Positions 146 to 61,689 of a stretch of DNA of 64,000 bases are shown here, piece by piece. The DNA comes from a virus. Taxonomy: Duplodnaviria; Heunggongvirae; Uroviricota; Caudoviricetes. Each line of letters starts with the position of its first letter. Positions within the stretch are counted from its first letter, which is position 1. Position numbers and translations under genes: made by a program. The stretch spans positions 166,155 to 230,154 of IMG/VR virus record IMGVR_UViG_3300044712_000568, one strand, 5' to 3'. The notes beneath the pieces are model-generated. The model was not told the origin of the DNA, searched no databases, and saw only the letters and a list, made by a program, of their open reading frames with translations.

Positions 146-176
146 AAGAGCGGCTTTCTAGGCCGCTCTTTTTTAT
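146..176. terminator. GC hairpin (aagagcggc/gccgctctt) followed by T-run on + strand
   Basis: 9-bp perfect stem 146-154/162-170, loop tttctag, then tttttattt. Confidence 0.4.
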
Positions 177-982
177 TTGAATACTACTTTTAATGCTTGT
201 TCTTTATCTGGTTTTTCTGGATCTTCCGACAATTTACCTTTGATGTCATCGATATGATGTGATGCTACATCTATTGCGCCAGTCATATCGTCAAGAGCTT
301 CTGCAATATCCGGATCCTTGTCTTCAGGATACTCTGTTTTGGTTTGAGTAATTTTTTCTTTAACTGCAGCAAGATCTGAAGAAATTTCATCAAAGCAGTT
401 TTCTTTGATAAGTTCCTTTTTGATAAATTTAAATGCTTCTACAACAGGAGTAGTTACATAACGCTTACCGAGAATATCAGCAGGATCTAATCCTACCTTA
501 TACATACCAGCGTCGAGATCCTGCGACATCGCTCTCTGTGCGATTTTTTCAGCAGGCACACCATGTAAATTCCGTGACGCTGCGAGTTTAATCGTGTTTT
601 CATCTTTAGGAAAAGCCTTAATTTCAACTTCATAACCGTGTTTAATCCCTTCTTGCACATAGAAATGGCGTTCTTTCTTAGTAATATTAGTATTATCCAC
701 TATTACGAGAGGAACTTCTCGCTGAAGAGCCTGTAGGTATTTTTGTTGGCAATTCATATGTGCAGTACGAAGCTGCATGAAATCAAATTTATAGGATGGA
801 GCATTTGCAGCCTCGGGATCACCAGCAGCTTCTAATTCTGCCCTATGTTTAGCAGCCAAATCTTCAAAATGATGGTCTGCAGAGCAAATTACATATTCTC
901 CACCGTACTGTTTAATATAGTTATTCGTGAAATAGCTTTTGCCACTTCCTGGAATTCCCACTAAAATAAGTACTTTTTTCAT
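173..982 (-). CDS. P-loop polynucleotide-kinase-like protein (Pnk kinase domain only, acidic C-terminal tail, no HAD phosphatase domain)
   Basis: Walker A GIPGSGKS at N-terminus; VIVDNTNITKKER resembles T4 Pnk DTNLNPERR; RNLHGVPAEKIAQRAM resembles Pnk RGTKAVPIDVLRSM. Confidence 0.55.
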   Translation of the reverse strand: MKKVLILVGIPGSGKSYFTNNYIKQYGGEYVICSADHHFEDLAAKHRAELEAAGDPEAANAPSYKFDFMQLRTAHMNCQQKYLQALQREVPLVIVDNTNITKKERHFYVQEGIKHGYEVEIKAFPKDENTIKLAASRNLHGVPAEKIAQRAMSQDLDAGMYKVGLDPADILGKRYVTTPVVEAFKFIKKELIKENCFDEISSDLAAVKEKITQTKTEYPEDKDPDIAEALDDMTGAIDVASHHIDDIKGKLSEDPEKPDKEQALKVVFK

Positions 983-36772: not shown

Positions 36773-37010
36773 TAAAAGATAACTAAACCCTTACAGATCA
36801 TATCGGGCGGTGAAGGTAGAATACCGAGAGATCGCAGATACCTGTCTGGGGAGTGGGCCTTCTACTTCGGGAGGTTAATCCTGCTCTAGTTGCCTCTAGA
36901 TACCTAGGATCTGTCTAGAGGATTTCTTTTAGTCGTGAATGATCCGCACGAATCGTTTGTGAGTATCGAAAAACTCTCGTCTTTCCAATCTACCTCATAA
37001 GGAGAACATC

Positions 37011-37166
37011 GTGAAAGCCATGATGTTTGCTCTCACCAAGGCTGGTATCCTCCCGTCCGAGAAGTTCATGCGGCAGGAAGAGGAAATCAAGAAGAAGAAG
37101 GCTGAAGCCAAGGCCAAGCGTCTCGAAGAGCAGGCAAAGGCGAAGGCTCCCATCACTGTTGAATAA
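37011..37166 (+). CDS. small Lys/Ala-rich protein (about 51 aa), not in track
   Basis: GTG 6 nt after aaggaga; KKKKAEAKAKRLEEQAKAKA. Confidence 0.4.
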   Translation: MKAMMFALTKAGILPSEKFMRQEEEIKKKKAEAKAKRLEEQAKAKAPITVE

Positions 37167-37847
37167 ACAGTGATAAAATCCTCAACGGCTGGCGGATACG
37201 ATCCGTCTATCGTGTCTACATTGAGGTAGCTGGATATAATTGACTAACTCCAGCATTGTTTTACCTTCCGAGATGCGGACTCCGAGCTGGCGTTGTTCCA
37301 GCCCATCTTTTAGCTGACAAACATCTTCTAATCCTGGCAGATTAGGAGAACAATTCAGCACCTTGCCAGAGGTTAGCGGAATATAGATAGTATCGTGAGT
37401 CCCAGGTGGCAGAGAAATCTATAAGTTCGCCGGAAGTATATTTTCCACACGATGGCCACTATTATCCCGGCGAAGGCTCTGCGAAAGCATCCAACAGGCT
37501 GCCATCAGTCAGCGTATCGTGTGTTTTATAAAACAAATTCCTTCGTTAAGATAATGAGTCTTCTCCCTCCAAAGGAGCAAATCTTGGAAACCCGTATCCA
37601 AGGCGAAGGATAACTTAGTTGTTCTCGATGCCGGTTGTAATGGGTTCAACCCGGCTAGGTGCTAATCGGATTCCAATAAGCAACCCGTTTGAAGGAATCT
37701 GAGCTAAGGTTTGTTTTAGGAGAACCCTTTATAAAGCTCTATTGGACGAGCGTCACCCTAAAAAGGTGAAGGTGTGTGGTTCAAATCCCACTATAATAGG
37801 GTTGTCTCAAGACAAATTTGTTTAATAGTTTTGTTTTAGGAGGAGTG

Positions 37848-37988
37848 CATGAATCAAGTTCCTTGGTATCACTTCTGGGATATGGGAAGCGGAGTAGGCG
37901 GCGGAATGATCGTCGGTATTCTTGTTTCTATTCCCTTCATCTATCTCTTTCTCAAGATCAGGAGTAGTCGTGCCCCGAGGGATTGAAA
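37848..37988 (+). CDS. small membrane protein (46 aa), not in track
   Basis: ttaggaggagtgcATG; hydrophobic core GMIVGILVSIPFIYLFL. Confidence 0.45.
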
Positions 37989-38812
37989 AGACTCCAAAGA
38001 TTCTTACCAAACTCACGGCTGTGTCCATGAGTTGCAATGGAAGGAAAATCAATACCTTCATTCATCTTCCCATCATTGGTGGAAAGGCTGTGCTTCCCAA
38101 TGATATTGTTACTGAGATGGAAAAAGATCTTGGTGCGGGAAGAGGAGATACGGTGAGTCTTGGCTAAAATTTCAGATTAGCCAATAACAAAGCGGTCCCG
38201 CCTATTCTATCATTCCACTACGGGTAAACAAATCCCGAGTAAAGATCGCCAATGATCGTGGATGATAATTACCTACTATCCAGAGACGCGTAAGCGCCAC
38301 TAAGATAGCAAGGGTTTGGATTAAGCTCCAGACAAATCCTAATGTTGAGATACATTAGGTTGTAGTCAAAGAAATGATCTCGCTGAGACTCTCGATAGGG
38401 TTCGTGGCTTAAACCTGGGACGAGTTGGATCTAGCTTTCTTTGGCGGAACCCGTAGACAGATAAGTAAACATCGGGCAGGCCCTGGATATGTTGCAGGGC
38501 ATTGAGATAATTGTAGCGAAATGAGATAGTCATTCTACTCCAGCAACAACATGGTATGTCCCATAGTTGTTCTGTTAAACATCTGAGTCATACTCAGGCT
38601 ACAATCTCACTCGTTTTGAAGGTGTCGTAAACCTATCTCCAGGGTTAGACTTCCTTGGGTTATCAGTTAAAAAGTGAAGTAGTCTAAAGAATACTAGACT
38701 TCCATTAGTGATAGAGAAACAACTATCACTTCCATGCGCTCTAGTCACAATGTCTTTAGATTCCTTGGGTAAAATGTAACCCTCTACCTTTTCTTCTTTC
38801 TCTACGGAGAGC

Positions 38813-38935
38813 CCATGACCACCGTCATCAAGACCACCAGGAAGAAGGCCAAGCGCCTCGCAAACGGGACGCAGAAGCGTCCGAACCGTGGCAAGGGACA
38901 GTCTCCCAAGTCCGGTAGTTCCAAGCATCAGTAGA
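38813..38935 (+). CDS. small basic protein (40 aa), not in track
   Basis: ggagagcccATG; MTTVIKTTRKKAKRLANG... Confidence 0.35.
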
Positions 38936-39011
38936 GCAAAGAAGTTACGGAAGTGGAGAGTGTAGTTAAAACATATGCTCTCCATTTCAGCAACTTCTCC
39001 AAGGAGATTTA

Positions 39012-39340
39012 TGCGCAGTCTTAAAAAGATCTGGTCTGACCTTCTTGATTCATTCATGGTAGTCCAGAACACTCCGAAGAAGATCGGTAATGTATTCGGA
39101 GAGGACAAATTACGCTTGGGTAAGATTTATGCCCGAGAGAAGCGAGTAGGATTCAAAGTAGTAGTCATCTATTGCTTTGAGGGAGTAAACAAGAATCGAC
39201 CCGCCTTCTTTGGTTGGTGCGAAGACATTAAGACCATTGAAAATCATATCCAGGAAAGATACCCGAATTGTTTCTTTACTCGTAATACCCCTTTTGATGA
39301 TGCTCTTGACGGAATTGAAAAACAACTTCAGGAGATTTAA
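39012..39340 (+). CDS. hypothetical protein
   Basis: internal ATG of 38975..39340 ORF preceded by aaggagatttATG. Confidence 0.45.
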
Positions 39341-39693
39341 TGATCTGCACAAAGTTTGCAAATCAAGTAGAGTCGCTGAAAACTCCTCAGAAACCAATCC
39401 GTCCCAATGTCTTTTTAAAGACAGTAGAAGAACTGTCGTTAGAAGAACTGCAGGCTCTTCCACAGATCAAACAGACCTACACAGATGAGCTAGCCTCTTA
39501 CGAGGAAGCTAAAATTTTTAATCAGAACTGTAAAAGTTCTGTTCTGATTGATTTTCATAAAGCTCTCGCTGAGGAATATGGAGAGTCGATGGGAACAATC
39601 CGAGAGCATTACATCTGGAAGGCGGCCAGTGCTGAAAGGAATTACTACGAGATCGAATGTAAGTATATGGAACTTGCAGGAGTTCCGAGGTAA
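39340..39693 (+). CDS. hypothetical protein
   Basis: 117 aa, TAATG coupling. Confidence 0.45.
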   Translation: MICTKFANQVESLKTPQKPIRPNVFLKTVEELSLEELQALPQIKQTYTDELASYEEAKIFNQNCKSSVLIDFHKALAEEYGESMGTIREHYIWKAASAERNYYEIECKYMELAGVPR

Positions 39694-40087
39694 TTGAGCT
39701 TCGAGAAGAATAACCTCCTTCTCTCCAATGTCCTAACGCATGGACAGGATTACAATGATGCCAATGGGAAGGTGAAACGATAGATCCGTCCCGCAATCCT
39801 GGAATAAACGGCAATTTGCTGAAAGAATTGGAGAGCGTTAGGGCTCTCCGATTCATACAGATGTTTTCAAAGGAGGTTCCTATGCGTTAAGTTTAGGGCC
39901 TATCAGAGACTCCCATTCGGTCATGGATGGGAGTCTCATTTTTTTGATTTGCTTTGAGAAGTCCTGAAAATGACATGCTCTAGGTGAGCGCCTGCTAAAA
40001 TAAGGGCTTGGCCAAGCTGGTAGGAACAAGAGACTAGGCTTCCCTCATTAACAGGATTTCTTAAAACAAATCAATTTCGAGGATACA

Positions 40088-43142: not shown

Positions 43143-43511
43143 ATGAGAGTTCTAATCATTGATGATGATATGGAAACTCGAAAGGATATCATTCTTCCTT
43201 TCTATCAGCGCAGAGGATCGGAAGATACTTTCTGGCTGGATCGTTGGCCTACCCTATTCCTCGAATTCATGAAAGACAATCCTTCCTTCACTCATATTTC
43301 ATTTGATCATGATCTTGGTCATACGGATGTGAGTGTTGAACTGAATCGAATGATGTTTCGGAATCCTGATCTCTTCGATGAGGTTTTTAAGGATAAACAT
43401 ATCGTCATTCATTCAATGAATGTGGTGGGAGCAACTAATATTCTTCACAAGCTGAAGGACCATGTTACTTCTGTTGCAGTCATTCCTCTTCATCTGATGA
43501 AGGAGTTATAA
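43143..43511 (+). CDS. hypothetical protein (N-terminus MRVLIIDDD resembles response-regulator receiver start)
   Basis: motif reading only. Confidence 0.4.
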   Translation: MRVLIIDDDMETRKDIILPFYQRRGSEDTFWLDRWPTLFLEFMKDNPSFTHISFDHDLGHTDVSVELNRMMFRNPDLFDEVFKDKHIVIHSMNVVGATNILHKLKDHVTSVAVIPLHLMKEL

Positions 43512-46036: not shown

Positions 46037-46453
46037 ATGAAATTATGTCCTTCCTGCAAAGAACAAAAACAAGAAACAGAATTTAATCTTACTGGCAATA
46101 AACTTCAATCTTGGTGTAAAAGTTGTCAGTGCGTAAAAGCAAAAAAGCAATACGAAGCTAACAAGGAAGAACAAAAGAAAAAAATAGAAGAGAATAGAAA
46201 GAAACGACGATCTCTTCTACAACAATACTTGTTGGATAGATTTAAATCAGGTTGCTTAGACTGTGGAATTACAGATCCTAGAGTATTAGAATGGGATCAT
46301 GTAAATGGTAAATCTTGGGATATTTCTAAGTTAATCCACGATGGTGCATCCATAGAACGAGCAGAGAAAGAATTGGCCAAGTGTGAATTAGTTTGCTCAA
46401 ATTGTCACAAAATACGGACATATGAGAGAACTTCTTCATATCGAAGCAAGTAA
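46037..46453 (+). CDS. HNH homing endonuclease
   Basis: LEWDHVNG ... CSNCH; N-terminal CxxC/CxxC; AT-rich island between two tRNA genes. Confidence 0.75.
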   Translation: MKLCPSCKEQKQETEFNLTGNKLQSWCKSCQCVKAKKQYEANKEEQKKKIEENRKKRRSLLQQYLLDRFKSGCLDCGITDPRVLEWDHVNGKSWDISKLIHDGASIERAEKELAKCELVCSNCHKIRTYERTSSYRSK

Positions 46454-48717: not shown

Positions 48718-48794
48718 GCCCTAAAGGTTTTATGAAACAATGCGATAATTAAATAGTTAGATGTCGTATTATTTGATGAAACCTAGTTTGCCAT

Positions 48795-48871
48795 GTGCCT
48801 GTAGCTCAGCGGACAGTAGCAATTGCCTTCTAAGCAATAGGTCGGGGGTTCGAGTCCCTCCAGGCACACCA
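48795..48871 (+). tRNA. tRNA-Arg (anticodon UCU)
   Basis: acceptor gtgcctg/caggcac, anticodon arm attgc-cttctaa-gcaat, T arm ggggg-ttcgagt-ccctc, CCA encoded. Confidence 0.7.
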
Positions 48872-48876
48872 ACTTT

Positions 48877-48921
48877 TAAGTTCAGAGTCTTGTAAACAAG
48901 AAAAACAAGACTCTGAACTTA
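48877..48921. other. 16-bp perfect inverted repeat taagttcagagtcttg / caagactctgaactta, 13-nt loop
   Basis: begins 6 nt after tRNA-Arg CCA; no T-run. Confidence 0.6.
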
Positions 48922-48946
48922 CTAGAAATAAATCATACAAATCATA

Positions 48947-49022
48947 GAATCCGTAGCTCAATTGGCAGAGCATCGCCCTTTTAAGGCGAGGGTTGTGGGA
49001 TCATACCCCACCGGGTTCACCA
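48947..49022 (+). tRNA. tRNA-Lys (anticodon UUU)
   Basis: acceptor gaatccg/cgggttc (one G:U), D arm gctc-aattggca-gagc, anticodon arm tcgcc-cttttaa-ggcga, T arm gtggg-atcatac-cccac (unusual T-loop), CCA encoded. Confidence 0.65.
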
Positions 49023-49026
49023 GTTT

Positions 49027-49143
49027 GTGCCCATAGCTCAACGGTTAGAGCATCAGCCTTTATCGTTTCTTATGTTGTAGGTGGAACATAAGAAACTTGC
49101 AGTAAGCTGAGGGTTCCGGGTTCGAATCCCGGTGGGCACACCA
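49027..49143 (+). tRNA. tRNA gene interrupted by a 41-nt insertion in the anticodon loop (intron-like or pseudogene)
   Basis: perfect acceptor gtgccca/tgggcac, D arm gctc-aacggtta-gagc, anticodon stem tcagc...gctga separated by 48 nt instead of 7, T arm ccggg-ttcgaat-cccgg, CCA encoded. Confidence 0.55.
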
Positions 49144-49255
49144 ATCAATTTCCTTTCGGCGTATACCTAACAATTAGTCGGACAAGAGCCGATGAAAGCT
49201 ACCTTGAGTGTTAGGTCAAGGAATCTAAGTAGCGAACGCCATCAATTGAAATCTC

Positions 49256-49286
49256 AGCCTCTCTTGTAGAGGCTTTTCTTTTGGAG
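49256..49286 (+). promoter_or_regulatory. hairpin-T-run-SD cassette copy a (agcctct-cttgt-agaggct tttcttttggag)
   Basis: one of three near-identical cassettes. Confidence 0.5.
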
Positions 49287-49291
49287 TATAT

Positions 49292-49408
49292 GTGGGACAT
49301 TCATTTACTCGTAAACTTCGTTGTATTCCTTGGCCCATTTGTATTCATTGCGGCCCGATTCGACTGAACAATGAAGCAACAAAGAAATCTAAATGTGATC
49401 GAGAGTAA
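49292..49408 (+). CDS. 38-aa zinc-ribbon-like peptide (paralog 1), not in track
   Basis: GTG 5 nt after ggag; VGHSFTRKLRCIPWPICIHCGPIRLNNEATKKSKCDRE. Confidence 0.4.
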   Translation: MGHSFTRKLRCIPWPICIHCGPIRLNNEATKKSKCDRE

Positions 49409-49694: not shown

Positions 49695-49725
49695 AGCCTC
49701 TCTCGCAGAGGCTTTTCTTTTGGAG
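49695..49725 (+). promoter_or_regulatory. hairpin-T-run-SD cassette copy b (agcctct-ctcgc-agaggct tttcttttggag)
   Basis: read directly. Confidence 0.5.
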
Positions 49726-50006: not shown

Positions 50007-50122
50007 TGGGACACTCGTTTACTCGTAAGCTTCGTTGTATTCCTTGGCCTATTTGTATCCATTGCGGATTAATACGATTAAATAACGAGGCAACTAGAAA
50101 GTCTAAGTGTGAACGTGAATGA
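50006..50122 (+). CDS. 38-aa zinc-ribbon-like peptide (paralog 2), not in track
   Basis: TAATG coupling; MGHSFTRKLRCIPWPICIHCGLIRLNNEATRKSKCERE. Confidence 0.45.
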   Translation: MGHSFTRKLRCIPWPICIHCGLIRLNNEATRKSKCERE

Positions 50123-54797: not shown

Positions 54798-55135
54798 TTG
54801 CCATAGTAGTTTAGTCAATGCTAATAGGGATTTAAACAAGCCGCCCACTCTTTGCGTTATAAGAGACACAATCCTGGACTAGCCTATTAAGCTAATTTGC
54901 CTCGGTCTGTAGTGGGAAGGCCAAAACATATGCGCGTAATGCTCATTGCTTTGTCTCACTATTGCCCAATGCTCCGTTGCTTAATGTTGATTGCCTATTG
55001 CGAGATTGTATCGGCTCTTTTGAAGCCACCTTCATCCCTTTAGCATCTGACCCTGAGAGGTTTGTTCTCTAGCCGGGAACAATCAAATGGTTGGCCTAAT
55101 CCAGCCTCTCACAATTTCTTAATTAAATACATTAC

Positions 55136-55592: not shown

Positions 55593-55628
55593 AGCCTCTC
55601 CCTAAAAAGAGAGGCTTTTCTTTTGGAG
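55593..55628 (+). promoter_or_regulatory. hairpin-T-run-SD cassette copy c (agcctctc-cctaaaaa-gagaggct tttcttttggag)
   Basis: read directly. Confidence 0.5.
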
Positions 55629-59577: not shown

Positions 59578-60708
59578 ATGTTAAAAGTTCAAGAATTTCT
59601 TCGTGCAGGTAATTCCTTGGACTTACTTGAATCTGAATTTAAGATTAAGGTAAGACACCATGAGGAACTTAATGTAGTGTGTCTTAACTATGATCAAATC
59701 AATTCGCCGTTGAGTGAAACGATTGTCCAAGAATGTCGGGCTCTTATTCTTGAGCGAGGCACTTGGGAAGTAAAATCTTGGCCATTCAAAAAGTTTTTTA
59801 ATGTTGGTGAATTTCTTGCAGTCAAAGAGTTTGACTGGGATGACTTCGATACATTTGAGAAATTGGATGGCTCAATTATTCATTTCTGGCACCACAATGC
59901 GTTAGGGTGGCAAGTGGGCACCCGGTCAGTTCCTGATTCAAAGACGCCTTATTGTGATGATCCATCTAAAACCTTCTATGATCTTATCTGCGCTACTTTG
60001 ATAGAACAGAAAACCTCATTTGAGGAACTTACCAGCTTTTTTACTCCCGGTTATTGTTATACTTTCGAATTAACTGGCCCAGAAAATCAAGTTGTTGTAT
60101 TTTATGAACAGCGTAGAATTTCTTTACTAGCTGTTAGAAATCTTAGCACTTTGGAGGAAGAAAACGCTGAGGACTGGATTAAATACAATCTTCCTCCTTG
60201 GATTGATGTTCATGAAGCTAAAGCCTATCATGGTTGGACTTTAGATCAAATTTCTAAGACAGTTCAAGAATTAAATCCTACTCAACAGGAAGGTTTCGTT
60301 CTTGTAGATAAAAATTGGAATAGGTTGAAGATTAAATCTGAAGCCTATTGCTTAATGTCTCATAGCAGAGACTCGCTAGGTAAATCTAACCGAGCAAGGC
60401 TTGAATTGATCTTTGCTGGAAAGGAAGACGATGTTCTTTCTATTCTTCCGCAAACAGTTCAAGATAAAATTTTATTCTTGAAAAGTGCATTGATGAAACT
60501 TCAAAATGAGGTGAGTCTTGCATACACAAGAATTTCTCATATTCACGATCAGAAAGAATTTGCTGCGGAAGCATTGAAAACAAAATATTCCGGTATGTTG
60601 TTTACTCTGCGAAAGAATCCGTTATTGAAACCGTCTGATGTAATTAAACAAACCATGCCTAAAAAGGTATTGGAACTTCTCTCACTGCAAGAAGAAGATT
60701 CGGAGTAA
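59578..60708 (+). CDS. RNA ligase, Rnl1 (T4 RnlA)-type nucleotidyltransferase
   Basis: motif I EKLDGS (KxDG), motif IV EGFVLVD, motif V RLKIKS; length 376 aa matches T4 Rnl1 (374 aa). Confidence 0.75.
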   Translation: MLKVQEFLRAGNSLDLLESEFKIKVRHHEELNVVCLNYDQINSPLSETIVQECRALILERGTWEVKSWPFKKFFNVGEFLAVKEFDWDDFDTFEKLDGSIIHFWHHNALGWQVGTRSVPDSKTPYCDDPSKTFYDLICATLIEQKTSFEELTSFFTPGYCYTFELTGPENQVVVFYEQRRISLLAVRNLSTLEEENAEDWIKYNLPPWIDVHEAKAYHGWTLDQISKTVQELNPTQQEGFVLVDKNWNRLKIKSEAYCLMSHSRDSLGKSNRARLELIFAGKEDDVLSILPQTVQDKILFLKSALMKLQNEVSLAYTRISHIHDQKEFAAEALKTKYSGMLFTLRKNPLLKPSDVIKQTMPKKVLELLSLQEEDSE

Positions 60709-60710
60709 TT

Positions 60711-61049
60711 ATGTTCAAGTGGTTTACAACTCAGCTTTTGCGTGTTGAATTTAAGAAAGTGGATTTGCCTATTCGAATCAATGATAAGGCAATCACTCTT
60801 CTTGCTCCGAATGAAAATGCTGAACTTGTTGAAGCATTTTTCATTGCTCACAGCAAAATTCAATCCGATCTGTTGGAGGAACTTCATTCGGCTTTTAATG
60901 CGTTGCTGAAATCTTCTGGTAAGTCTCCTGAAGAGGATGCTGAGCGATTAGTTGTTTTGAATGTTCTTCGGTCTAAATATCAAGCACTTTTTAATGCTCT
61001 CGACGAGTTGAAAGAAGCGCAAGCTACTAAGGAATCTAATGAAGTTTAA
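60711..61049 (+). CDS. hypothetical helical protein
   Basis: 112 aa between ligase and phosphoesterase. Confidence 0.45.
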   Translation: MFKWFTTQLLRVEFKKVDLPIRINDKAITLLAPNENAELVEAFFIAHSKIQSDLLEELHSAFNALLKSSGKSPEEDAERLVVLNVLRSKYQALFNALDELKEAQATKESNEV

Positions 61050-61689
61050 AAATATCTGGCTTACCTCAGATCCTCATTATGGGCATGTTCGAGCACTGGA
61101 GATCATGCCTAATCGTCCCTGGAAAACAGTGGATGAAATGAACGCTGGTTTAGCTGAGAATCATAACAGCACTGTTGGTAAGAATGACGCTGTTATTTTT
61201 GTCGGTGATGTTGTTATGGGTAAGAAATACGAAAATGTTCCTAAGTTTATTCCTCAGCTTAATGGAACAAAAATTCTTGTTCGTGGCAACCATGATGCGG
61301 GATTTCAAGAAACTGATGTGACAAAGGCTGGAAAAGCCGTGTCTCTTTATAAGGATAATGGATTTGTTGAAGTCTATGATGGATTAGTCAATCTTAACAC
61401 GCTTTTAGCTATGCTTAAAGTGGAAGAGGAACTTCCGTATAGAATCAACTTATGTCATTTTCCTTATCAAGGAACTCCCGATCATGACGATCAAGCTGAA
61501 TATGAGGCTAGGTATTTACATCTAATGCCTCCCAGGACTGAACATCTTCTCTTACATGGACATACTCACAAACCTTTTCAGGTGACTGATGATACTATGA
61601 TTCATGTTGGAGTGGATGCTTGGGAATGGAAACCTGTGAATCTGATCGATTTACTTAGCATTGCGGAACTTTACTGCAAAGTTAAATAA
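61039..61689 (+). CDS. calcineurin-type metallophosphoesterase (candidate RNA end-healing phosphatase)
   Basis: motifs DPHYGH, GDVVMG, GNHD, HGHTH. Confidence 0.7.
   Translation: MKFKNIWLTSDPHYGHVRALEIMPNRPWKTVDEMNAGLAENHNSTVGKNDAVIFVGDVVMGKKYENVPKFIPQLNGTKILVRGNHDAGFQETDVTKAGKAVSLYKDNGFVEVYDGLVNLNTLLAMLKVEEELPYRINLCHFPYQGTPDHDDQAEYEARYLHLMPPRTEHLLLHGHTHKPFQVTDDTMIHVGVDAWEWKPVNLIDLLSIAELYCKVK

Follow-up and report, generated by a model that had tools for sequence, protein, structure and literature searches.

A hairpin insert of 41 nucleotides in the anticodon loop of a phage tRNA gene, most likely a protein-dependent mini-intron of tRNA-Lys(UUU)

The DNA analysed in this study, a stretch of 64,000 nucleotides (nt) from a tailed phage (IMG/VR record IMGVR_UViG_3300044712_000568, positions 166,155 to 230,154; hereafter the window), carries at positions 49027-49143 of the plus strand a tRNA gene with an anticodon loop interrupted by 41 extra nt. 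An earlier note on this DNA, made from the sequence alone, had offered three options for the insert, a novel small intron, a regulated or inactivated tRNA, or a suppressor tRNA, and the first of them agrees best with the results described herein. The interrupted gene is real, and most likely represents a hairpin-only variant of a scarcely described class of protein-dependent mini-introns. With somewhat better than even confidence we propose that its transcript is a precursor of tRNA-Lys(UUU), from which a mini-intron between U35 and U36 would be removed by protein-dependent cutting and ligation. The splicing of this copy, the exact junction and the ligase involved are all what we infer from the comparison of sequences.

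The interrupted tRNA gene and its insert

The gene is complete, with CCA encoded at 49141-43, and can be written as GTGCCCA-TA-GCTC-AACGGTTA-GAGC-A-TCAGC-[48 nt]-GCTGA-GGGTT-CCGGG-TTCGAAT-CCCGG-TGGGCAC-A-CCA, with the acceptor strands at 49027-33 and 49133-39 and the anticodon-stem halves TCAGC at 49053-57 and GCTGA at 49106-10. The acceptor, D, anticodon and T arms are fully paired (7/7, 4/4, 5/5 and 5/5 base pairs, respectively), and the 5-bp anticodon stem encloses 48 nt instead of the usual 7. The Rfam tRNA model (RF00005) matched the sequence at all its positions 1-71 with a score of 62.0 bits (gathering score, 29; E 5e-11), comparable to the scores of the eight ordinary tRNAs in the window, and placed a 44-nt insertion within the anticodon loop only. 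ARAGORN in the default bacterial mode skips this gene, but with the intron search (-i), as proposed in the earlier note, it reported a tRNA of 76 nt plus an intron of 41 nt. The four canonical arms, the encoded CCA and the 41 extra nt in the anticodon loop, all claimed at the outset, are thus borne out. The marks of a pseudogene, degraded stems or lost conserved nucleotides, were not observed, since U8, A14, G18G19, TTCGAAT, A73 and CCA are all kept.

The boundaries of the insert were set from the alignment of relatives described below, the requirement for a 7-nt loop and the shared end ...CAG/UAA (the slash marks the predicted junction). The 5' exon (49027-49061, plus strand), as placed by Rfam, ARAGORN -i and this alignment, would comprise the acceptor 5' strand, the D arm (with C16 and U20), TCAGC and C32 U33 U34 U35; the 41-nt intervening sequence (49062-49102, plus strand) would consist of AUC (49062-64), two stem arms (49065-76 and 49085-96) flanking a loop (49077-84), and the tail UUGCAG (49097-102); and the 3' exon (49103-49143, plus strand) would start with U36 A37 A38, followed by GCTGA (with G39, C40 and U41), the variable loop GGGTT, the T arm, the acceptor 3' strand, A73 and CCA.

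The inverted-repeat search confirmed a perfect hairpin (100% complementary) in the insert, closing the 8-nt loop GUAGGUGG, and corrected the length of its stem from the 10 bp first described to 12 bp. When the 48-nt loop was shuffled 20,000 times, no shuffle produced a stem of 12 bp or longer and 8 produced one of at least 10 bp, and the whole 117-mer was predicted to fold into a cloverleaf with an extended anticodon arm (-46.5 kcal/mol, z = -4.4). No second copy of the hairpin was found within the 64-kb window, which argues against a repeated mobile hairpin. A role of the insert as a transcription terminator was rejected, as the hairpin is followed by no U tract. The 541-nt region including the gene is identical, with zero differences, in the Logan assembly SRR26046407 (145-kb contig) and in a separate 7.4-kb JGI contig (3300042876). 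Since three assemblies carry the same sequence, the artefact of a single assembly, against which the earlier note had cautioned, is unlikely.

Relatives, predicted splice junction and probable isotype

By pattern scan, a homologous intron family was identified in tRNA-Lys(UUU) of three phage loci, L014 (208 kb), L499 and L502 (numbers with L denote loci found in our scans), of which L502 is the cultured Agrobacterium phage Atu_ph07, with the Lys gene in an unannotated gap at 68156-68280. Sinorhizobium phage Phosso carries an intronless orthologue, annotated as tRNA-Lys(ttt), from which the Atu_ph07 exons differ only by compensatory stem changes, and the alignment of this orthologue fixes the intron of the Lys family between CTTT and TAA, that is, between U35 and U36. 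When Phosso, Atu_ph07, L014, L499 and the window gene are aligned together (alignment A3), the window gene shows the same 5' CCTTT and 3' CAGTAAGC junctions, and its intron ends with GCAG followed by TAA, in good agreement with the 3' end N-(C/G)AG of the family. The first nucleotide A of the window intron can pair with U(-5), leaving a 4-nt tail GCAG comparable to ACAG and UGAG of the relatives. The three Lys-family introns of Atu_ph07, L014 and L499 covary in both helices (the pair at stem position 3 can be C:G, U:A or A:U, and compensatory changes occur in several T-stem pairs), with two G.A mismatches kept. Independently of this family, the Asn(GUU) genes of L014, L119, L050 and Atu_ph07 (with U1-A72 and G73) require a 35/36 junction.

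Removal of the 41 nt at this junction would join CUUU to UAA, giving CUUUUAA, a 7-nt loop with the sense anticodon UUU for Lys. The spliced window tRNA would be 78% identical to the Lys tRNA of L499 (85% in the core) and 78% identical to that of Phosso, and the window exons as a whole are 71-78% identical to the Lys-family relatives. Because the insert shares both its site and the CAG/UAA end with the orthologue-pinned family, the mature product, composed of 49027-49061 and 49103-49143, is most likely tRNA-Lys(UUU). Depending on a free splice point, the earlier note had allowed UGU (Thr), UUU (Lys) or UUA as the anticodon; Lys(UUU) is favoured among the three, but the splice point is not free, as the intronless orthologue pins that of the family to U35/U36. 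BLAST of the tRNA body had pointed to Arg, but this identity was rejected because C35 is unreachable by any excision and position 20 is U, not A. A metagenome scan with the pattern of the intronless allele yielded 120 ordinary bacterial tRNAs, spread over Arg, Gly and a few Lys, which shows that the isotype cannot be read from the anticodon arm.

For a wider view of such inserts, IMG/VR was scanned with a pattern made of a bacterial-type D arm, YT, 38-68 nt and a T arm (at least 120 loci), followed by a cloverleaf filter. Pattern scans detected dozens of phage tRNAs with anticodon-loop inserts of 26-56 nt. The filtered matches listed formed two populations, one of eukaryote-style tRNA-Tyr introns on giant-virus contigs and the other of bacterial-type tRNAs with anticodon loops of 33-56 nt, many of them with encoded CCA, on phage contigs that reach 490 kb; in several phages, two or three intron-bearing tRNA genes follow one another. 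When the anticodon was left free in the scan, each of the 14 distinct tRNAs of bacterial type among the matches listed (14/14) is readable as U36, and hence as ANN-decoding (Lys, Asn, Thr, Arg(UCU) and Ile), and no Val, Ala, Phe or Gly tRNA with an insert was among these matches, though the pattern allows them. The class is concentrated in ANN-reading tRNAs, with Lys(UUU), Thr(UGU) and Asn(GUU) foremost among them. Its members vary widely in sequence and fold, but many inserts are themselves tRNA-like, with an acceptor-like stem of 7 positions, a GG-containing linker, a T-arm-like hairpin and a 4-nt tail in place of NCCA, an architecture that puts the intron ends at the equivalents of tRNA positions +1 and 76. 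By its apparent architecture the window intron is a reduced, hairpin-only variant and not a typical member, because its interior is a plain hairpin in place of stem, linker and T arm.

The sole prior description of the class that we found in the literature is that of "enigmatic introns" in the tRNAs of Lak megaphages, one of them itself tRNA-like (Devoto et al. 2019, PMC6784885), and neither a mechanism nor a mechanistic follow-up was found there. The class is widespread but barely described, and the window gene is not unique in it. The earlier note was right in regarding a small insert other than a group I intron as unusual for a phage, but such an insert is not unprecedented, given the Lak introns and the dozens more found here, some of them in a cultured phage.

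Several sequence features turned up alongside these scans. The hexamer GUAGGU is shared, within loop or linker, by three introns that are unrelated in other respects, those of the window (49078-49083), Atu_ph07 Thr and L119 Asn, and an RGGU or GGG motif is present in most intron linkers, recalling G18G19 of the D loop, possibly as an elbow mimic and possibly by chance. At L015 (945-1105), the 5' half of a tRNA-Lys is fused to a second tRNA-Lys-like gene with a long variable arm, and L013 (2076-2357) carries two tandem AT-rich tRNA-like genes with an insert of roughly 40-50 nt. The scan of a genome collection returned mostly archaeal introns of the bulge-helix-bulge type. TRNA-like genes with "anticodon loops" of 38-43 nt were observed in bacterial genomes and metagenome-assembled genomes (L273, L299, L297, L374, L290, L358 and L365, from Dongiaceae, Betaproteobacteria, Elioraea, Bradyrhizobium and others); these keep the acceptor, D and T arms and NCCA, with loops such as TTTTCTACA...GTATGGG and CTTCCTGCG...ACAGTACGGG, which do not end in AA, unlike those of the phage class. 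A likeness of the window hairpin, TTTCTTATG...CATAAGAAA, to the intron of L079 was treated as chance, since the scan was swamped by a coding palindrome of giant viruses. This palindrome, (A/G)AAC-TTTCTTATG-N11-CATAAGAAA-GTT, occurs more than 80 times in IMG/VR (L375-L494, many of them GVMAG contigs), where it encodes a conserved giant-virus motif KLSYExxxHKKV unrelated to the tRNA hairpin.

Evidence on the function of such inserts came from Atu_ph07, for which the whole genome (490 kb, MF403008.1) was put together from the annotated record and analysed by ARAGORN with and without the intron search. The 30 intronless tRNAs of this phage leave only Asn and Thr without a tRNA, and Lys is represented among them by Lys(CUU) but not by Lys(UUU). 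The intron-bearing genes are exactly the three that are missing from this set, Lys(UUU), Asn(GUU) and Thr(UGU), with the identity elements A73 for Lys, U1-A72 and G73 for Asn, and G1-C72, C2-G71 and A73 for Thr. These genes (L509, L516 and L517; 68156-68280, 323904-324023 and 335105-335213) are unannotated in MF403008.1, and the publication on this phage likewise lists neither an Asn nor a Thr tRNA. As the intron-bearing genes are the only source of these three tRNAs, the class appears to be processed to working tRNAs; it is unlikely that dead copies would be the only genes for three tRNAs in an otherwise full set. Together with the flawless exons of the window gene, this set also weakens the idea of an inactivated tRNA, without removing it for the window copy. 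Atu_ph07 in addition encodes a T4-like RnlA.

The same three tRNAs, Lys(UUU), Thr(UGU) and Asn(GUU), are the targets of AriB, the nuclease of the anti-phage system PARIS (Belukhina et al., PMC12409363). AriB cuts between C40 and A41, leaving 3'-OH and 5'-phosphate ends, and needs U39, A41 and U16, with U39 lying within the conserved U36AAU39, and variants of the three tRNAs encoded by phage T5 neutralise PARIS (PMC12409363). The intron-bearing trio of Atu_ph07 is identical to this target trio, and the window tRNA, with G39, U41 and C16, is without the AriB determinants U39, A41 and U16. From this coincidence we infer a link of the class, which sits mainly in tRNAs attacked by anti-phage nucleases, to defence, in which the intron might shield the precursor, regulate the tRNA supply or be a mere passenger.

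Proposed protein-dependent maturation and the rival explanations

The insert is predicted to fold as a 12-bp hairpin stacked on the anticodon stem, and, because it is far too small for a group I ribozyme, its maturation must depend on proteins. Two endonucleolytic cuts are proposed, one after U35 and the other after the terminal CAG, whereupon the 3' end of U35 would be joined to the 5' end of U36 across the anticodon loop, most likely by the phage RNA ligase 1 (Rnl1) of T4 type, giving the predicted junction ...CAGCCUUU/UAAGCUG... with the junction k-mer GAGCATCAGCCTTTTAAGCTGAGGGTT. Sealing of breaks within the anticodon loop is the speciality of T4 Rnl1, and T4 Rnl1 and Pnkp repair tRNA-Lys after its cleavage by PrrC. 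If the cuts leave 3'-OH and 5'-phosphate ends, as do those by enzymes of the RNase P, RNase Z, RNase III or Toprim type, Rnl1 alone would be enough; if they leave a 2',3'-cyclic phosphate and 5'-OH, the ends would be healed by a Pnk-like kinase and phosphoesterases. The product would supply the decoding of AAA, with a tRNA free of the AriB determinants.

The window encodes candidates for all these healing and sealing steps. The candidate for the exon-joining enzyme is an Rnl1-family RNA ligase of 376 aa (59578-60708, plus strand; Pfam RNA_lig_T4_1, 8e-16; PHROG 562, 8e-44; best PDB match T4 RNA ligase 1, 2C5U, 1.5e-9). Adjoining it is a calcineurin-type metallophosphoesterase (61039-61689, plus strand; Pfam Metallophos, 9e-10), a candidate 3'-end healing enzyme, of which a homologue is located near the intron-bearing tRNA of L031. 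A Pnk-like P-loop kinase of 269 aa (173-982, minus strand; Pfam AAA_33, 5e-11), with the best PDB matches to the kinase domain of T4 polynucleotide kinase (1LY1 and 1LTQ, E 1.4e-4), is a candidate 5'-OH polynucleotide kinase. A cREC_REC domain protein (43143-43511, plus strand; Pfam PF20274, 1.6e-9) is predicted to process cyclic phosphates, in accordance with the association of cREC domain proteins with RNA-repair loci (Iyer et al. 2021, PMC7824862). As far as can be predicted from these domains, ligase, phosphoesterase, cREC protein and kinase make up a complete T4-style kit for RNA healing and sealing.

The cutting step was considered in terms of several geometries. For the tRNA-like introns, cutting by tRNA end-processing enzymes at the intron's own positions +1 and 76 would fit the numbers, and so does the combination of RNase P with a cut after the CCA equivalent, but for the window intron, with its 12-bp stem taken as the minihelix, this register would give a 12-nt loop and was dropped. 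The RNase III geometry, with a 2-nt 3' overhang, was dropped as inconsistent across the hairpin-type introns, as was a pairing of nucleotides 32-35 with the last four intron nucleotides, which is present in the window, L014 and L105 but absent from L119 and L050.

The points that weigh against splicing of the window copy to tRNA-Lys(UUU) concern the intron, the tRNA and the enzymes. The window intron lacks the acceptor-like stem, linker and T-arm-like hairpin of its closest relatives, as well as any T-loop motif, and its interior homology consists of short resemblances (TTCTTA/TAAGAA against GTCTGA/TAAGAC) plus the terminal CAG. When the 12-bp hairpin is treated as a tRNA-like minihelix and cut at the +1 and 76 equivalents, a loop of 12 nt and not 7 results. 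In its body the tRNA resembles certain tRNA-Arg genes no less closely than tRNA-Lys. With an intronless tRNA-Lys(UUU) 4 nt upstream, the phage could in principle do without the interrupted copy, which might be a dead allele. Large phages commonly carry Rnl1, Pnk and phosphoesterases to repair tRNAs, so that the presence of these enzymes is not specific evidence of splicing. No endonuclease candidate for the cutting was identified in the window; in particular, a tRNA_int_endo (EndA-like) domain was found in none of the approximately 90 window open reading frames (ORFs) scanned, drawn from 64 kb of a 230-kb phage.

Some of these points would be accounted for if the 117-nt RNA stays unspliced, serving as a decoy or sponge for tRNA-targeting nucleases or tRNA-binding proteins or being the functionless product of a recently inactivated tRNA-Lys copy, an alternative that we regard as rather unlikely but that deserves attention before all others. 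Translation could spare the interrupted copy, with a normal tRNA-Lys(UUU) immediately upstream, and the failure to find an endonuclease among the scanned ORFs, like the insert without the tRNA-like features of its relatives, is as expected for an RNA that is never cut. The nucleotides C32-U35 and U36-A38 are kept beside the stem, as they would be in a mimic, and the three available copies are identical, hence there is no divergence that could show purifying selection. On the other hand, the exons show zero decay, the insert occupies the exact site of a conserved and covarying intron family, a perfect 12-bp stem is not expected from a random insertion, and Atu_ph07 has no genes for three needed tRNAs other than the intron-bearing ones.

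A different product, tRNA-Thr(UGU), would arise by shifting the junction one nucleotide upstream (CUU/.../GUAA, with the junction sequence ...CCTTGTAAGC...) through RNase III-like cuts, a reading that we consider improbable. It would add a new NNA-reading tRNA to the phage set instead of a duplicate Lys, and the codon ACA is used 22 times per 1000 codons, like ATA and AGA, both of which are served by phage tRNAs. With C32:G paired, the cut geometry leaves a 2-nt 3' overhang, and RNase III products, with 3'-OH and 5'-phosphate ends, are direct substrates of Rnl1, which counts in its favour. The same ambiguity in Atu_ph07 was, however, settled as Lys by the intronless Phosso orthologue, and that phage has a separate intron-bearing Thr(UGU) gene. 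Moreover, the window gene carries U2-A71 as opposed to C2-G71 of the Atu_ph07 Thr gene, and among tRNAs that share the window anticodon arm TTT occurs but TGT does not.

An intron of archaeal or eukaryal type at 37/38, recognised through a relaxed bulge-helix-bulge, would leave the loop CUUUAUA with the anticodon UUA, an ochre suppressor (junction sequence ...CCTTTAAAGC...), which had been one of the possibilities raised at the start; we now hold it very unlikely. The constrained fold contains a UAA bulge, C32:G, U33:A, U34.C, U35:G, A:U, a 2x1 internal loop and the 12-bp stem; it thus provides a 3-nt UAA bulge next to the anticodon stem, a helix of 4 positions and three unpaired 5' AUC nucleotides, and cuts two nucleotides into each bulge leave exactly 7 nt. 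The canonical motif for which the earlier note had suggested a search, a 4-bp helix between two 3-nt bulges, is nevertheless not formed, because the central helix is broken by a U.C mismatch and two unpaired U lie opposite the 5' AUC, making up an internal loop, so that the geometry is only half satisfied. Position 37 would be U, and the 35/36 junction pinned by the orthologue is impossible for the bulge-helix-bulge geometry, UUA arising only with a different junction. The tRNA-intron endonuclease domain was not found in the approximately 90 scanned window ORFs, and a bacterial host is indicated by intrinsic terminators, Shine-Dalgarno-like GGAG motifs, a tRNA-Gln with U1-A72 and T4-like genes. 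Finally, 29 of 40 ORFs end in TAA, which speaks against an ochre suppressor.

Just as improbable is a new, very small self-splicing or self-cleaving RNA, which would account for the lack of an endonuclease: a length of 41 nt, with 32 of them in a plain hairpin, leaves no room for a catalytic core, the members of the class differ widely in sequence and fold, and none of the Rfam ribozyme or intron families gave a match in 48900-49300, even at E up to 1, nor did any in the region 36-58 kb. A group I intron was rejected on the same Rfam result and on size (41 nt compared with approximately 200 nt or more for the P1-P9 core).

Beyond the single gene, the splicing of such precursors in general may be envisaged. 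We put forward, as a tentative proposal with the odds rather against it, that large phages have a dedicated protein-catalysed tRNA splicing, in which mini-introns at 35/36 of Lys(UUU), Thr(UGU) and Asn(GUU) would be removed with Rnl1-type ligation in the course of an arms race. The cutter might then be a tRNA end-processing enzyme reading the minihelix, a phage enzyme, or even a tRNA-targeting defence nuclease of the host. Against nucleases of the PARIS or anticodon type, replacement tRNAs could be kept as nuclease-proof precursors, or their supply could be tied to phage enzymes.

Genomic setting and comparison with known systems

The window belongs to a large tailed phage that encodes an SbcCD-like nuclease, a gp25-like baseplate wedge, a dUTPase, an HNH endonuclease and nine tRNAs. 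The interrupted gene appears to be the last of a transcription unit that starts with tRNA-Arg(UCU) (48795-48871), followed by a perfect 17-bp hairpin with an 11-nt loop (48877-48921), which fills the spacer between tRNA-Arg and tRNA-Lys and could be a processing signal, then by the intronless tRNA-Lys(UUU) (48947-49022), both tRNAs being identified by ARAGORN and Rfam, and, after 4 nt, by the interrupted gene. The unit appears to be closed approximately 110 nt after the CCA by an intrinsic-terminator-like hairpin with a T run (49256-49283, found by terminator scan), all these elements being on the plus strand. The segment in between (49144-49255) is non-coding, with a weak fold (z = -1.35). 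The intronless neighbour has an atypical T loop ATCATAC (A54 and U58; usually TTCRANY) and also G39, and a comparable odd T loop, ATCGTGC, was observed in a metagenomic tRNA-Lys (L229). A near-identical module of terminator plus TTTTCTTTTGGAG is repeated three to five times, including 49256-49286, 49695-49725 and 55598-55628, and a 112-nt direct repeat of 80% identity links 49293-49404 with 50007-50118. A shared motif ACAAT...TAATTAAATA is located at 48737-48755 and 55111-55129, 7-40 nt upstream of the tRNA-Arg and tRNA-Glu units, and may be a phage promoter for tRNA transcription. A tRNA-Phe with the unusual anticodon AAA and a low score of 42 bits is located at 37725-37801, and the coding density is low at 36800-40000.

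The composition shifts abruptly at about 32000, from a GC content of ~0.33 (1-32000) to ~0.42-0.45 (32001-64000). Codon usage per 1000 before and after this point is 62 versus 33 for AAA, 18 versus 50 for AAG, and 50 versus 12 for TTA; AAA is the commonest codon in the AT-rich first 32 kb, and the phage tRNAs match NNA codons that are enriched in this half only. In searches for close relatives, comparison with GenBank phages by blastn and tblastn yielded nothing beyond generic tRNA matches or Rnl1 matches of approximately 30%, those in IMG/VR with exact tRNA patterns and neighbouring proteins gave nothing or giant-virus ATPases only, and a 285-aa neighbour protein matched only itself. Neither a close relative of the window phage nor a diverged orthologue of the exact interrupted gene was obtained in these searches of GenBank phages and IMG/VR.

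The tRNA region of the window also contains, between tRNA-Ile and tRNA-Leu, a free-standing gene for an HNH homing endonuclease (46037-46453, plus strand; PHROG 2255, 3e-27), of which homologues adjoin intron-bearing tRNAs in L119, L131, L050 and L043. In Atu_ph07, an HNH gene is located 67 nt from the Lys gene and an annotated homing endonuclease 83 nt from the Thr gene, and beside other intron-bearing tRNAs homing genes of GIY-YIG type (L007, L017 and L040) or HNH type (L045, L067, L105, L119 and L131) were found. The HNH gene may be relevant to the spread or retention of tRNA mini-introns. By analogy to collaborative homing, it is possible that the insert arose as a shield of the tRNA gene from cleavage by a homing endonuclease.

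To our knowledge, bacteria and phages are generally held to have self-splicing introns of groups I and II only, protein-spliced tRNA introns being a hallmark of archaea and eukaryotes. The phage tRNA introns of 26-56 nt cannot self-splice, and they are concentrated in the target trio of a known defence nuclease, in phages with a T4-type RNA ligase. If they are spliced, the phage RNA ligase 1 and Pnkp would gain a second job besides repair, phage enzymes could gate the tRNA supply in infected cells, and phage tRNA sets would be systematically under-annotated, as illustrated by Atu_ph07, published as being without Asn and Thr tRNAs. A dedicated phage pathway of tRNA splicing, if true, would be the first protein-catalysed one in the bacterial world. 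Since Atu_ph07, a carrier of such introns, is in culture on A. tumefaciens C58, the question of splicing is directly testable.

Among known systems, group I introns likewise interrupt bacterial-type tRNAs within the anticodon loop and are linked with homing endonucleases (PMC3984707), but they are approximately 200 nt or longer and carry a conserved catalytic core, whereas the window insert is 41 nt long and coreless. The tRNA introns of archaea and eukaryotes share with the window insert the size range, the location in the anticodon loop and the need for a protein endonuclease plus an RNA ligase, and the window set of Rnl1, kinase and phosphoesterase resembles the heal-and-seal activities of fungal and plant Trl1 (general knowledge; PMC3400036). 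They differ in that the window junction is at 35/36 and not at 37/38, without a canonical bulge-helix-bulge, without an EndA homologue found in the window, and in a bacterial host. The repair of tRNA by T4 Pnkp and Rnl1 employs the same enzyme family on the same substrate geometry, a break in the anticodon loop of tRNA-Lys, and the PARIS-evading rescue tRNAs of T5 represent the same Lys, Thr and Asn trio as the intron-bearing set; in both cases, however, intact tRNAs are repaired or replaced, with no intervening sequence.

The Lak introns are, like that of the window, short inserts in the anticodon loop that are not of group I, are missed by tRNA finders in the bacterial mode, are highly conserved between samples and belong to no Rfam family. 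They differ in length (79-114 nt), in the host tRNAs (Tyr, Phe, Gly and Thr) and in structure, being composed of a leader hairpin and a tRNA-like unit, one of which matches the Rfam tRNA model, whereas the window insert is a 41-nt hairpin only, at 35/36 of tRNA-Lys. The closest likeness is to the Lys introns of Atu_ph07, L014 and L499, which share with the window the tRNA-Lys host, the CTTT/.../TAA site, the terminal (C/G)AG and a similar stem base, and Atu_ph07 also shares the phage-encoded Rnl1. These introns are, however, 48-49 nt long, with conserved G.A mismatches in an acceptor-like stem of 7 positions, and with a 15-nt linker plus a T-arm-like hairpin whose loop is UGCRAAU, in contrast to the single 12-bp stem and 8-nt loop of the window intron, in which the 5' spacer is 3 nt and not 1.

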